In this document: positions 15,775 to 24,832 of the stretch, piece by piece | Numbering within the stretch: position 1 is the stretch's first letter | Layout: each line of letters starts with the position of its first letter | From: a phage | Length of the DNA: 29,205 nt | Direction: 5' to 3' (one strand) | Assembly: GCA_021683455.1 (NCBI GenBank) | Contig: GCA_021683455.1_3051.3 | Notes under the pieces: generated by a model | Told to the model about the DNA's origin: nothing | The model's input: the letters and a program-made list of their open reading frames with translations, nothing else | Database searches by the model: none | Program-made: the position numbers and the translations under genes

Positions 15775-15957
15775 ATGGAATTGGTAAAGGTAGTTTTTAT
15801 GGGGTGGTTTAAGAATGAAAGCATGTTTACTAAAGAAACCACAATGATGAAAGATGACGTTCAATGGGCTACTACTCAATATGCTGAAGTTAATAAAGCA
15901 TTAGTTAAAGCTTTCATTGATGACAAGAAAGTATGTGAAGTAGATTGCCGAGGATAA
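15775..15957 (+). CDS. dmd: Dmd-like protein (discrimination of mRNA degradation; antitoxin against RnlA/LsoA)
   Basis: 60 aa, the T4 Dmd length; first ORF downstream of gene 41 behind its own early promoter; GAGGAG SD. Confidence 0.6.
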   Translation: MELVKVVFMGWFKNESMFTKETTMMKDDVQWATTQYAEVNKALVKAFIDDKKVCEVDCRG

Positions 15958-15958
15958 T

Positions 15959-16216
15959 ATGCATATTGTTTTATTTAAACCTACTCCATATAACGTCAGG
16001 AAAAATACGCAATTCAAAGCACTTATTGCAGATACATGGGAATTGGTGCTAGATATTCCAGCAGAAGAAAGTCCTCCATTTGGTCGAGTGGAATTTATTA
16101 AGTTTGCTGTACGTCCTACGAAGAGGCAGATTCGTCAATGCAAAAGATATTTTCGTAAGATCGTTAAGTTAGAGAAACAGTTTGTAACATGTGATTATGC
16201 AGAAGTTTTAAAATAG
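15959..16216 (+). CDS. Small hypothetical protein (position of T4 61.4)
   Basis: 85-aa ORF; GAGGA SD; ATG 2 nt after the dmd stop. Confidence 0.5.
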   Translation: MHIVLFKPTPYNVRKNTQFKALIADTWELVLDIPAEESPPFGRVEFIKFAVRPTKRQIRQCKRYFRKIVKLEKQFVTCDYAEVLK

Positions 16217-16276: not shown

Positions 16277-16570
16277 ATGAAAAAATTTATTTTTGCTACA
16301 ATTTTTACTTTGGCTTCTTGTGCTGCTCAGCCTGCTATGGCAGGTTATGATAAAGATTTGTGTGAATGGTCTATGACTGCAGATCAGACTGAAGTTGAAA
16401 CTCAAATTGAAGCGGATATTATGAATATTGTTGAGCGCGATCGTCCTGAAATGAAAGCTGAAGTGCAAAAACAACTTAAGTCTGGCGGTGTAATGCAGTA
16501 TAATTATGTTCTGTATTGCGATAAAAACTTTAATAACAAAGATATCGTAACCGAAATCACAGGTGAATAA
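16277..16570 (+). CDS. sp: Spackle-like periplasmic protein (superinfection exclusion / lysozyme inhibitor)
   Basis: 97 aa with a cleavable signal peptide (MKKFIFATIFTLASCAAQPAMA); length and position match T4 sp (61.3). Confidence 0.6.
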   Translation: MKKFIFATIFTLASCAAQPAMAGYDKDLCEWSMTADQTEVETQIEADIMNIVERDRPEMKAEVQKQLKSGGVMQYNYVLYCDKNFNNKDIVTEITGE

Positions 16571-16571
16571 T

Positions 16572-17204
16572 ATGATTTATTATATGCACAAAAATCCACC
16601 GTTTAAATACGGTAAATTTCCTGGTGCACAATGTTATAATATAACGCCTGATGAAAATAACCGTGGATATCTTATTGGCACAATTTTTGTAATTGTTAAA
16701 GATAACGAAATCGTTGCCTGGGCAGATTTTAAAGGTACAACATATGATGTTAATCCGGTGCCTTTCACATATTACAATTTAATGGATTTGGCATACGATT
16801 ATAATTGGTTTAATCATGACACGTTGGCTCATATTGAAGGTGTAGGATTTGACATCTCTTATTCTAGCTACTCATTGTGTCCTATGAGTCGGGCTCATAA
16901 AGAACCTGAATATTTTTCATTTAGGAAACGTGTAAACTTTAAACGCAACACAGAGCATGTCGGTGGAATCTTTGTTAAAGATAATCGAATTACTCGCATT
17001 ATTTATCCTTTGGGCTGTGGTCAAAAAGATATTGATGTTGATTTAGACTTTACTGAAAACATCATTAATCATATTGCTTCTGTGTATTTTGGTATCGATC
17101 ACAAAATTGTAATATGTGGATATGAATTACCGTTTGAAGAACAGTCTAAAGTAAATGTTTCTATTGACGATCAAATTTTTAATGCTTTTATGAATAAAGG
17201 TTAA
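16572..17204 (+). CDS. Hypothetical protein (position of T4 61.2); C-terminal tail shared with the next ORF
   Basis: 210 aa from ATG 16572; ends ...SIDDQIFNAFMNKG. Confidence 0.55.
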   Translation: MIYYMHKNPPFKYGKFPGAQCYNITPDENNRGYLIGTIFVIVKDNEIVAWADFKGTTYDVNPVPFTYYNLMDLAYDYNWFNHDTLAHIEGVGFDISYSSYSLCPMSRAHKEPEYFSFRKRVNFKRNTEHVGGIFVKDNRITRIIYPLGCGQKDIDVDLDFTENIINHIASVYFGIDHKIVICGYELPFEEQSKVNVSIDDQIFNAFMNKG

Positions 17205-17208
17205 TATG
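17160..17208 (+). repeat. Direct repeat copy 1 (3' end of the 61.2-position ORF plus stop/start junction)
   Basis: About 46/49 nt identical to 17518..17566, including CAAATTTTTAATGCTTTTATGAATA and GGTTAATATG. Confidence 0.7.
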
Positions 17209-17562
17209 TATAGTTCTGAATTTTCATATTTAAAAATGGAAAAAATTTCATACGATTTTATAGATGAAAAGGTTTATTACAGTTTCCATGAACCACGTTT
17301 TAATAGTGAGGTTGGGTTTATTGTAGTAAAAGACAATTTCATTTTAAAGATATATTCGGCATTAAAGGATTTTCACTACGAAAATATTAACCTAAAATTT
17401 GATAAAGAAAACGTTCGTAATTGCGCAGTAACAATTACAGGAAATAAAGGCACATGTGTTATGCTATCTGATGAAATTAATGATTTGCTAAATGATGCCG
17501 AAAAGGTTGCTATTCCATCTATTGATGACCAAATTTTTAATGCTTTTATGAATAGAGGTTAA
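17206..17562 (+). CDS. Hypothetical protein (position of T4 61.1); C-terminal tail shared with the previous ORF
   Basis: 118 aa; ends ...SIDDQIFNAFMNRG. Confidence 0.55.
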   Translation: MYSSEFSYLKMEKISYDFIDEKVYYSFHEPRFNSEVGFIVVKDNFILKIYSALKDFHYENINLKFDKENVRNCAVTITGNKGTCVMLSDEINDLLNDAEKVAIPSIDDQIFNAFMNRG

Positions 17563-17566
17563 TATG
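17518..17566 (+). repeat. Direct repeat copy 2 (3' end of the 61.1-position ORF plus stop/start junction)
   Basis: See copy 1; the two copies are 358 bp apart. Confidence 0.7.
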
Positions 17567-17728
17567 AAAACATATAAAGAATTTATTAAAGAAGATATGG
17601 TAGCTGGAGATTCAGGTGGTAATCCTGAAAATATCTCTACTGGAACAACGTCGGGCGCTGTAGTAAATAAAGGTCCTGAACAGATTCCTAAAAAGAAAAA
17701 AGAGGAATCTAAAGAAAAAGAAGAGTAA
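17564..17728 (+). CDS. Small hypothetical protein (54 aa), Lys/Glu-rich C-terminus
   Basis: ATG 2 nt after the preceding stop; stop 2 nt before the gene 61 ATG; below the ORF-track cutoff. Confidence 0.35.
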   Translation: MKTYKEFIKEDMVAGDSGGNPENISTGTTSGAVVNKGPEQIPKKKKEESKEKEE

Positions 17729-17730
17729 AA

Positions 17731-18759
17731 ATGTCATCAATATCTTGGATTGATAATGAGTTTGCATATCGTGCATTAGCTCATTTACCTAAATTCACAC
17801 AAGTAAATAATAGTTCAACTTTTAAATTACGGTTTAGATGCCCTGTTTGTGGAGATTCAAAAACCGACCAGAATAAAGCCCGTGGATGGTATTACGGTGA
17901 TAATAATGAAGGAAATATTCATTGTTATAACTGTAACTATCATGCACCAATCGGAATATATTTAAAGGAGTTTGAACCTGATTTATATCGTGAGTATATC
18001 TTTGAAATAAGAAAAGAAAAAGGTAAAAGCCGTCCAGTAGAAAAACCTAAAGAACTTCCTAAACAACCTGAGAAGAAAATAATTAAATCTCTTCCGTCAT
18101 GTGTTAGATTAGATAAACTGGTGGAAGACCATCCAATTATAAAATATGTAAAAGCTCGTTGTATTCCAAAGGATAAATGGAAATATCTTTGGTTTACAAC
18201 CGAATGGCCTAAATTAGTTAATAGCATAGTACCGGGAACATATAAAAAGGAAATTTCTGAGCCTCGTCTTGTTATTCCAATTTATAATGCTAATGGAAAA
18301 GCCGAGTCGTTTCAAGGGCGTGCATTAAAGAAAGATGCTCCTCAAAAATATATCACCATTAAAGCTTATCCTGAGGCAACAAAAATATATGGAGTCGAAC
18401 GAGTTAAAGATGGTGATGTATATGTTCTAGAAGGACCTATAGATTCACTTTTTATTGAAAATGGTATAGCTATTACGGGTGGTCAATTAGACCTAGAAGT
18501 TGTTCCATTTAAAGATAGACGAGTGTGGGTTTTAGATAATGAACCTCGTCACCCTGACACTATCAAACGAATGACTAAATTAGTTGATGCAGGAGAAAGG
18601 GTTATGTTTTGGGATAAATCTCCCTGGAAATCAAAAGATGTCAATGATATGATTAGAAAGGAAGGTGCAACCCCTGAACAAATTATGGAATATATGAAAA
18701 ATAATATTGCCCAGGGGTTAATGGCTAAAATGCGGTTATCTAAATATGCTAAGATTTAA
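17731..18759 (+). CDS. 61: DNA primase gp61
   Basis: 342 aa; N-terminal zinc-ribbon cysteines (CPVCGDS ... CYNCNYH); TOPRIM-like EGPIDS and DNEPR motifs. Confidence 0.9.
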   Translation: MSSISWIDNEFAYRALAHLPKFTQVNNSSTFKLRFRCPVCGDSKTDQNKARGWYYGDNNEGNIHCYNCNYHAPIGIYLKEFEPDLYREYIFEIRKEKGKSRPVEKPKELPKQPEKKIIKSLPSCVRLDKLVEDHPIIKYVKARCIPKDKWKYLWFTTEWPKLVNSIVPGTYKKEISEPRLVIPIYNANGKAESFQGRALKKDAPQKYITIKAYPEATKIYGVERVKDGDVYVLEGPIDSLFIENGIAITGGQLDLEVVPFKDRRVWVLDNEPRHPDTIKRMTKLVDAGERVMFWDKSPWKSKDVNDMIRKEGATPEQIMEYMKNNIAQGLMAKMRLSKYAKI

Positions 18760-18956
18760 ATTAACCCAACTAAAGCAAATGCTAAATCTACAAATGTATC
18801 AAGAGTAACTACTGGAATATTAATACCATGCGCAATTGCAACAGGTGATAGAATAAAGTTCCAGAGTAAAATTCCTACCATAGCAGAAATAGTAAAAGCT
18901 ATACGTTTCTTATTACCTTTGATGGCATTAACAAGTGCCATTAATTTTTGTACCAT
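18756..18956 (-). CDS. Small hydrophobic membrane protein encoded antisense to the early gene block
   Basis: 66 aa; on the minus strand a strong SD (AAGGAGG) lies 4 nt upstream of the ATG; stop overlaps the gene 61 stop (TTAA, convergent). The only minus-strand ORF with a credible ribosome-binding site. Confidence 0.5.
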   Translation of the reverse strand: MVQKLMALVNAIKGNKKRIAFTISAMVGILLWNFILSPVAIAHGINIPVVTLDTFVDLAFALVGLI

Positions 18957-23763: not shown

Positions 23764-24519
23764 ATGAAACTGCATAATATGTCTAATAATCAAATTCGTA
23801 AAATTAAACGTCGTTTAGAGCATACTCAGGCATCTGCTAAAAGACGTTCTAAAGATTTTAACTTAGACTTCAATTACATTAAGAACATTTTAGATCAAAA
23901 AGTTTGTGCCTATTCGGGAGAACCTTTTGATAATCGTATTGAAGGAGAGAAATTATCATTAGAACGTTTTGATAATAACATTGGATACATTAAAGGGAAC
24001 GTTATTGCAGTAAAGAAAAAGTATAATACATTTCGTTCTGATTATACTTTAGAAGAGTTGATTGAAAAGCGTGATTTATTTGCTTTGCGAATTGGTCGTT
24101 CATCTGCGAAAAAAGTTCATAAACTAAATTTAGATGAAAAGAAATGGGCTAAAATCAAAAAGACTTATAATCAAATTAAAGCTATACAGAAAAAACGTGA
24201 AAACCGAATTGAACACATTTCTCAGCTTTCTAAATCAAAACAAACTTCTGACGTTAAGCTAACGATTATAGCACTTAAAGCTCGTATTGATGGTTCTCGT
24301 ATAGCAGAAGGTGCTGAAGTTGTTAAACTGAACGTTCTTCTTAAAGGCTCGGATTGGAAAATTGTGAAAAAGTTGTCAGAAGCAGAAATGCAATATGATA
24401 TGTGTGATAAAATTATTCAAGGTGTAGAGCGGTATCAAAACTTGTCTTTTATTGATAAACTTAAACTGAAAAGAGGATACCCGCTAAATTGTTCAATTTT
24501 TAAACTTATCCGAGGATAA
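23764..24519 (+). CDS. srd: Basic hypothetical protein, positionally equivalent to T4 srd
   Basis: 251 aa; Lys/Arg-rich; own early promoter; located between modA and dda. Symbol assigned by synteny only. Confidence 0.4.
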   Translation: MKLHNMSNNQIRKIKRRLEHTQASAKRRSKDFNLDFNYIKNILDQKVCAYSGEPFDNRIEGEKLSLERFDNNIGYIKGNVIAVKKKYNTFRSDYTLEELIEKRDLFALRIGRSSAKKVHKLNLDEKKWAKIKKTYNQIKAIQKKRENRIEHISQLSKSKQTSDVKLTIIALKARIDGSRIAEGAEVVKLNVLLKGSDWKIVKKLSEAEMQYDMCDKIIQGVERYQNLSFIDKLKLKRGYPLNCSIFKLIRG

Positions 24520-24520
24520 T

Positions 24521-24832
24521 ATGGTTTATGTATATGCGATAGTTTACCGAGACAAAGACGGATTTACGGCGCCAGTTCCGCTTGATGAACATCGTCCTGC
24601 TGTATTTTTTGAATGGAATATTGCTGACAAAGTATTTACCACTCTTAAAGAGCAGTATCGACTAGCTTTAGGTATGGGAATTCCAAGATTAGTTGAAACT
24701 CCACGCAAGTTTTGGTTTAATAAAATAGAAGTTAAACACGTTAAGCCTGATGTAGACACACAAAGATTATATCGGCGAATTTTAGATACTGGGCGTGTTG
24801 TTAGTATTCCAATTGCAGGGACTTTCCGATGA
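24521..24832 (+). CDS. Small hypothetical protein (dda.1-like position)
   Basis: 103 aa; GAGGA SD; stop overlaps the dda start (ATGA). Confidence 0.5.
   Translation: MVYVYAIVYRDKDGFTAPVPLDEHRPAVFFEWNIADKVFTTLKEQYRLALGMGIPRLVETPRKFWFNKIEVKHVKPDVDTQRLYRRILDTGRVVSIPIAGTFR

Follow-up and report, generated by a model that had tools for sequence, protein, structure and literature searches.

Why should two neighbouring genes of a T-even phage end in the same 14-residue peptide, encoded each time by nearly the same stretch of DNA? The question is raised by a locus of the window (i.e. the whole stretch of DNA that was analysed, 29,205 bp), a contig deposited under an Escherichia coli assembly (protein L5O72_004638) and therefore phage sequence within a bacterial genome submission. 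The window is of the Tequatrovirus type represented by RB32 and RB51, and the 1.6-kb region of interest is 96-98.6% identical to many T-even genomes. Genes occur in the order 41, dmd, 61.4 (tifA), sp, 61.2, an extra ORF, 61.1 and 61 (Table 1), in the T-even region with dmd, tifA and adfA that has been named the anti-toxin island (PMC9391042). The two genes with a common end are adfA (gene 61.2; ORF 1) and the extra ORF (ORF 2), designated below as the short gene. The repeat is probably the 3' end that two old paralogs of the AdfA family have in common, an end that would be constrained as a peptide and would act in addition as a handle for recombination.

Table 1. Coordinates of the repeat copies, of the cassette and of the genes that surround them in the window
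Feature	Position	Strand	Description
sp (spackle, 61.3)	16277..16570	+	Pfam T4_Spackle, E 5.8e-45; upstream neighbour of adfA
adfA (T4 gene 61.2, anti-DarT factor A)	16572..17204	+	210 aa from the first ATG; Pfam PF23813
Repeat copy 1	17160..17208	+	Codons for SIDDQIFNAFMNKG; weakened Shine-Dalgarno-like AAAGGT (17196-17201); stop TAA (17202-17204); base T; ATG of the short gene (17206-17208)
Short gene (RB32ORF033c type), candidate AdfA paralog	17206..17562	+	118 aa; phrog_4122, E 6.7e-73
358-bp cassette	17209..17566	+	Body of the short gene and one repeat copy; equally 17160-17517
Repeat copy 2	17518..17566	+	Codons for SIDDQIFNAFMNRG; Shine-Dalgarno-like AGAGGT (17554-17559); stop TAA (17560-17562); base T; ATG of 61.1 (17564-17566)
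Gene 61.1	17564..17728	+	54 aa; phrog_1823, E 7e-34; annotated in T4 and RB51; start inside copy 2

The repeated gene ends and their surroundings

A repeat finder run on the window reported here a single direct-repeat family of 49 nt, with 46 of the 49 positions identical between the two copies (94%) and a start-to-start spacing of 358. Together with the ORF ends, this confirms what a sequence-only reading of this DNA had described, namely two copies about 94% identical and 358 bp apart that encode the same 14-residue tail. Only three bases distinguish the copies, resulting in two synonymous changes (GAC GAT versus GAT GAC) and in a K/R replacement (AAA versus AGA). Both ORFs end in SIDDQIFNAFMN(K/R)G, each tail being separated from the next ATG by TAA and one T. 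The string GGTTAATATG is found in the window only at 17199 and 17557, and a degenerate back-translation of DDQIFNAFM has two matches there, both of which are the tails, for none expected from shuffles. The DNA of copy 2 is identical to that of the single tail of T4 adfA.

The short gene is annotated in RB51 and RB18 as RB32ORF033c, "similar to gp61.2". The sequence-only reading had placed it at the position of 61.1, a label that is wrong because the true 61.1 is the 54-aa ORF located immediately downstream; the short gene is an additional one that lies between 61.2 and 61.1.

Some other features were detected in the surroundings of the locus. A 66-aa ORF of the RB32ORF030w type, for which the Sf21 annotation gives a predicted membrane protein, is located on the minus strand (18756-18956) and overlaps the primase stop, while dam, which in T4 occurs between 61 and 56, is absent from the window. 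In the T2 reference (L004, about 1940-1972), the insertion of one nucleotide close to the 3' end of sp results in an altered Sp C-terminus; this insertion is absent from three other T2-type loci (L007, L026 and L027) and may correspond to a sequencing error or to a strain-specific frameshift. Finally, in the same island of a distant T4-like contig (L042, 371-991), gene 41 and dmd are separated by a gene for an HNH endonuclease.

An invariant tail and a 358-bp cassette

In every relative recovered, the C-terminal end follows the pattern (S)(I/V)DDQIFNAFM(N/K)(R/K)(G/D). Carriers of this tail include the AdfA proteins of T4, of RB69-like phages and of a 60%-identical variant, the one-domain proteins of the 033c/037 types and a 145-aa "038" type; they are distributed over Tequatrovirus, Mosigvirus-like phages, Gaprivervirus and more distant T4-like contigs, and their genes are always located directly after sp, a slot occupied by one or two tail-bearing genes in each T4-like genome examined. 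When the phage collection was searched with the tail by tblastn, matches were obtained at 846 places in 684 records, all of which are T4-like genomes. Among one-domain relatives the tail is invariant down to 26% identity of the body, and the linker that precedes it is variable in both length and sequence. Comparison of orthologs gave a pN of about 0 for the tail and a pS of 0.14-0.65, similar to that of the gene body; on the strength of these substitution patterns, the tail peptide is shown to be held by selection at the protein level. Structure prediction further suggests that it forms a short amphipathic helix carried by the variable linker. The end of gp43 that binds the gp45 clamp (ASLDFLFG, encoded in the window) was considered as a counterpart of the tail, and the likeness, merely generic (hydrophobic/aromatic), is not claimed.

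The family itself is restricted. When 1.84 billion representatives were searched exhaustively with a profile, only 7 clusters were retrieved at E <= 0.001, of which one is probably spurious, and a word-indexed protein search likewise pointed to a very small family. In IMG/VR, 15 loci were found; no distant relatives are at hand that could suggest a function. The 145-aa "038" proteins are tied to it by the tail, the position and one Foldseek match only, and sequence tests of their body against AdfA (hhalign and Smith-Waterman among them) detected no significant similarity. In Gaprivervirus-like loci (L006, L010, L034-L037 and L040), a 145-aa tail protein is encoded directly after sp and is followed by an ortholog of the short gene; JS98-like relatives (L016-L021) have the 145-aa type only.

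Alignments of T4, RB18, T2 and the window delimited a cassette of 358 bp, the register of which is ambiguous within the repeat (see Table 1). T4 and RB18 differ by one gap of 358 bp, which can be placed anywhere along 40 identical nt, and the flanks are 96.3% and 98.5% identical; the indel corresponds to exactly one repeat period and leaves one copy of the repeat. As read from two sequences, in which deletion and insertion look alike, such a gap is the pattern that crossing-over between the copies, or the reverse event, leaves behind. In T4, adfA is directly followed by 61.1 and the short gene is missing, while RB18, L024/25 and L041 combine an adfA allele of the T4 type with the short gene. 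A third arrangement, encountered in T2 and in three metagenomic contigs, consists of the short gene without adfA, preceded by the last ca. 13 nt of the tail; no clean repeat or microhomology accounts for the endpoints of this T2-type adfA deletion. T2 has been described as having no adfA homolog (PMC11257639), which is true for the full-length gene and, to judge from the sequence of its short gene, untrue for the family.

In the phage collection, the adfA-tail-033c junction was detected in 158 records, the short gene in about 294-299 and the N-terminal half of adfA in 487, corresponding in a rough census to ca. 158 genomes with both genes, ca. 140 with the short gene only (T2 type) and ca. 330 with adfA only. 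The same searches revealed neither a three-copy nor a 033c-033c arrangement, the candidates for the latter being ordinary loci matched in two pieces; of the one- and three-copy variants that had been suggested to exist in related genomes, only those with one gene were thus encountered, next to the two-gene ones. By comparison of these natural variants, the repeat is shown to delimit a cassette that is gained or lost, which supports at the sequence level the earlier proposal that it is a substrate for the recombinational deletion of the ORF in between. In experiments, T4 recombines around dmd-tifA at microhomologies of 6-10 bp (PMC9391042); since such lengths suffice, a repeat of 49 bp is a plausible substrate, and it qualifies as a recombination handle because roughly 45 of the same bases occur twice in direct order.

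Whether the two tails of a genome also exchange sequence was addressed by comparison with a null model in which the same peptide is drawn with the codon usage of the genome. About 5.4 differing codons are then expected, two or fewer having a P of 0.037 and zero a P of 0.0006. The two synonymous differences of the window are only marginally fewer than this expectation, and no synonymous difference separates the two tails within RB18, RB33 or L031/32, a group to which genomes of the L024 type are also counted. In L024 and L025, both tails share an AAC codon seen nowhere else, and in L010 and L036 the two tails are identical while those of the sister phage VR25 differ at three codons. A permutation test was significant overall and across genera (P 0.004), a signal that a shift in codon usage could mimic, and gave P values of 0.15 and 1.0 within genera, with n = 5 each. 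A metagenome scan for two-copy loci added 4 contigs only, too few to strengthen the test. On balance, these data lean towards sporadic gene conversion between the two tails.

Alternatively, constraint on the protein could suffice: the same peptide would be written with few codons, the tails would not recombine with each other and the short gene would be exchanged via longer flanking homology. Such a scenario accommodates the normal variation of synonymous sites in the tail among orthologs, the marginal deficit of differing codons in the window and the lack of significance of the within-genus permutation tests. It does not sit easily with the several genomes devoid of synonymous differences, with the AAC codon common to both tails of L024/L025, with the homogenisation of L010/L036 relative to VR25, or with an indel between T4 and RB18 of exactly one repeat period that leaves one copy, and it is considered unlikely.

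Ancestry of the two genes and their stop/start junction

ORF 1 matches PF23813 over its full length (E 1.6e-136; 452.8 bits for a cut-off of 27), its residues 1-210 being aligned to profile positions 1-211. DarT1 is a toxin that AdfA binds, and in the RB69 protein R164H is a one-residue switch that turns binding on (PMC11257639). In the alignment, His167 of ORF 1 (within TENIINHIAS) is paired with R168 of the RB69-like protein, a residue that has number 164 when counting starts at MHKN; ORF 1 has therefore a His at the position equivalent to R164H, as in the DarT1-binding allele (PMC11257639). The residue of ORF 2 aligned with this specificity position is an Asn. The adfA gene of the window is otherwise a mosaic, its first ca. 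170 nt (16572 to ca. 16745) being distant from T4 and RB18 and resembling RB69-like phages while the rest is ca. 95% T4-like. Across the phage collection, identity of the N-terminal half of adfA is bimodal (90-99% versus 60-80%).

ORF 2 also scores above the Pfam cut-off of 27 for AdfA (34.1 bits, residues 22-118 on profile positions 113-211), a match that is largely driven by the tail: once the 14 residues are removed, no Pfam model is matched, that of AdfA included. With the tail, BLASTP aligns it with AdfA residues 111-210 (36% identity over 106 residues, E 1e-9); without it, the E-value is 0.008 and ca. 32% identity is found over 62 residues (21-77 of ORF 2 with 111-171 of AdfA). Since the tail-less Pfam search is blank and HH-suite probabilities are low, with shallow profiles, homology of the bodies rests on several weak tests that agree. 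For the tail-less protein, hhalign gave a P of 0.0096 with very shallow profiles and, with deeper ones, of 4.8e-4 with the C-terminal half of AdfA and 3.2e-3 with its N-terminal half, the two halves of AdfA matching each other with a P of 1.7e-3. Smith-Waterman alignment of the ORF 2 body to AdfA gave a z of 4.1 (P 0.0055; 2000 shuffles), and that of the body of P0031, a 26%-identical family member, to the C-terminal half of AdfA a z of 4.9.

Predicted structures point in the same direction. The AlphaFold2 model of ORF 2 (pLDDT 84, core >90) consists of one beta5-alpha-beta-alpha module, a flexible linker and a tail helix at 106-115 (pLDDT 54-58), and secondary-structure elements occur in the same order in the AdfA model (pLDDT 71.5), where a five-strand/helix/strand pattern is present twice and is followed by a linker and a tail helix at 198-206. 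AdfA is accordingly predicted to be composed of two beta5-alpha-beta modules, a linker and the tail helix. When the ORF 2 model was used to search BFVD with Foldseek, a nameless 212-aa protein was retrieved (E 3e-4, 32% identity), taken to be AdfA-like from its length and identity, and Foldseek also matched the 145-aa VR25_038 (E 8e-4). Searches gave no NCBIfam match, and neither a solved structure (by sequence) nor an informative fold match was found for the family. The dN/dS of the short-gene body (0.13-0.33) indicates that the gene is real and under purifying selection.

These results suggest that the two genes are paralogs, the tail-free similarity being weak but reproducible (P about 0.005 to 0.0005, with matching predicted folds), and that one domain is likely present three times at the locus, as a fused pair in AdfA and singly in the short gene. 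A full-length alignment, proposed earlier as a check of paralogy, leaves a similarity that outlasts removal of the tail and that is faint, the bodies being ca. 30% identical. The possibility that the tail is the only similarity, or a coincidence, is made unlikely by this residual signal and by the presence of the tail in every homolog examined.

In another scenario, the 3' half of adfA would have been duplicated in tandem only recently in this lineage, and the repeat would be the part not yet diverged, which would agree with the adjacency and common orientation of the genes and with the alignment of the short protein to AdfA 111-210. Bodies that are only ca. 32% identical over 62 residues argue against this scenario, as do orthologs of the short gene (44-50% identical) that occupy the corresponding place in Gaprivervirus as well as in T4-like contigs that are more distant, and one-domain members that represent the more widespread form. 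A recent event is very unlikely, and what can be retained of the tandem duplication or module exchange first proposed are the paralogy and the gain or loss of a module, the duplication itself being old (bodies ca. 30% identical).

Both copies of the repeat have, to judge from the sequence, the layout of a translationally coupled junction, with TAA-T-ATG preceded by AAAGGT or AGAGGT inside the upstream ORF, 4 nt before the spacer. Stop-1nt-ATG junctions (TAATATG, TGATATG or TAAAATG) were found at six or more gene boundaries of the window, often after GAGG or GGA (e.g. 15957-15959, 16570-16572 and 24519-24521), and their frequency indicates that this type of junction is generic for gene packing in T-even phages. 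Among relatives, the junction occurs as TAATATG, TGATATG, TAAAATG or TAGTATG, while the peptide is invariant. In the two-gene genomes sampled (L002-L041), the upstream tail always ends in KG or RD (AAA GGT, AGA GAT or CGA GAT); RG, encoded by (A/C)GA GGT, is the ending found in the downstream copy and in all single-copy genomes sampled. The departures of the upstream copy make the GAGG motif ahead of the short gene weaker, alter the C-terminus of the protein and correspond to at least three independent mutational routes. The preserved junction had been read as a conserved re-initiation signal, an idea that was abandoned given the same junction type at other boundaries and the difference between the copies in precisely their Shine-Dalgarno part.

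On the same grounds, it is extremely unlikely that the two ends converged because both downstream genes need the same re-initiation context. The GAGG/AAGG motif in the last codons, 4-5 nt before the next ATG, and the stop and start separated by 1 nt are what such convergence would produce; however, only the last ca. 10 nt are usable for translation and the two copies have 42 nt of coding sequence in common, the junction differs from one relative to another when the peptide does not, unrelated boundaries have the junction without the peptide, and it is in the Shine-Dalgarno part that the copies differ.

Finally, gene shuffling in T4-type genomes is known to take place at promoter/stem-loop cassettes that are repeated between genes, the PeSLs, in which short boundary repeats flank genes that are absent from close relatives, as observed here (PMC2839356, PMC4122927). 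PeSLs are defined by an intergenic early promoter and a stem-loop terminator, whereas the present repeat consists of the coding end of a protein and of a ribosome-binding site: its copies have no terminator-like hairpin, their promoter-like matches are at the level of shuffled sequences (16 versus 13.2), and the RNA around each copy has no stable fold when compared to shuffles (z = +1.9 and -0.2). With a peptide that is invariant, synonymous sites that are free to vary and none of these RNA, terminator or promoter signals, the constraint bears on the peptide and not on a DNA or RNA element. It is thus most improbable that a PeSL, the target of a homing endonuclease (no endonuclease gene lies beside the cassette in the window) or a regulatory RNA overlaps these coding ends.

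A proposed role for the tail and significance for the AdfA family

The reading favoured here, i.e. two old paralogs with a common, peptide-constrained 3' end that also serves for recombination, would work as follows. In the anti-toxin island of T-even phages (dmd, tifA/61.4, sp, adfA), adfA and its one-domain relative of the RB32ORF033c type would be immediate neighbours, and each repeat copy would superimpose two signals, one for the invariant C-terminal peptide and one composed of the ribosome-binding site, stop and start that serve the next gene. Crossing-over between the copies would remove or add exactly one 358-bp unit, giving the T4 arrangement upon removal, and occasional gene conversion would homogenise the two tails. 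The tail, modelled with low pLDDT, may be a docking element common to all family members, while the body domains, including the residue that decides DarT1 binding, may set the specificity for the target; the short paralog would then be a putative second anti-toxin factor with a different target.

A more specific version of this mechanism is offered tentatively, as a possibility on the doubtful side. The tail would be both a docking peptide for one shared partner and a portable recombination handle, with the 118-aa gene as the putative second anti-toxin factor. The partner could be a surface that is conserved in toxins of the DarT type, or else a factor of the phage or of the host that acts at the replication fork; the handle would let phages add, drop and perhaps exchange specificity domains, and the systematic departures of the upstream copy, which affect its final two residues and the ribosome-binding site, could tune the balance of the two proteins.

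Several known systems can be compared with this locus. In the short-homology ("minihomology") recombination of T4, which yields deletions and amplifications between direct repeats (Srikant et al. 2022, PMC9391042, and earlier T4 studies cited therein), as here, the indel equals the repeat period, one copy is left and the breakpoint is ambiguous, and the dmd-tifA amplifications observed experimentally took place in the same neighbourhood. Here, by contrast, the repeat has 49 bp instead of 6-10 bp, is selected as a coding sequence and is known from natural variants. Neither the short paralog nor the shared tail is mentioned in the two articles on AdfA and on this recombination (PMC11257639 and PMC9391042), LeRoux et al. 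2022 being outside the scope of the comparison. When set against AdfA itself (T4 gp61.2, RB69 AdfA, PF23813), ORF 1 is a full-length member with the DarT1-binding His and ORF 2 lies above the Pfam cut-off, both in the dmd-tifA-adfA island; ORF 2 differs in having one domain of the two, a Pfam match that depends on the tail and an Asn at the specificity position.

In polymorphic toxin/immunity modules, a short motif precedes the variable C-terminal toxin domain, as do VENN in CdiA and PxxxxDPxGL in Rhs. By analogy, the tail would be a short invariant peptide-coding segment beside variable specificity domains and might provide homology for swapping them; in contrast to these motifs, it is placed after the variable domain, at the very end of the protein, and gain or loss was seen rather than swaps of bodies.

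The finding is a modest extension of the AdfA family and of the short-homology recombination of T4, and not a new kind of system. Its interest comes from adfA, one of a small number of T4 genes for which an anti-defence role is known. If the favoured reading is true, the anti-toxin island would hold a second member of this family in about 300 sequenced T-even phages, T2 included, the most conserved part of the family would be its tail of 12-14 residues, and the repeat that encodes this tail would explain, at the base-pair level, why close relatives differ by exactly the short gene.
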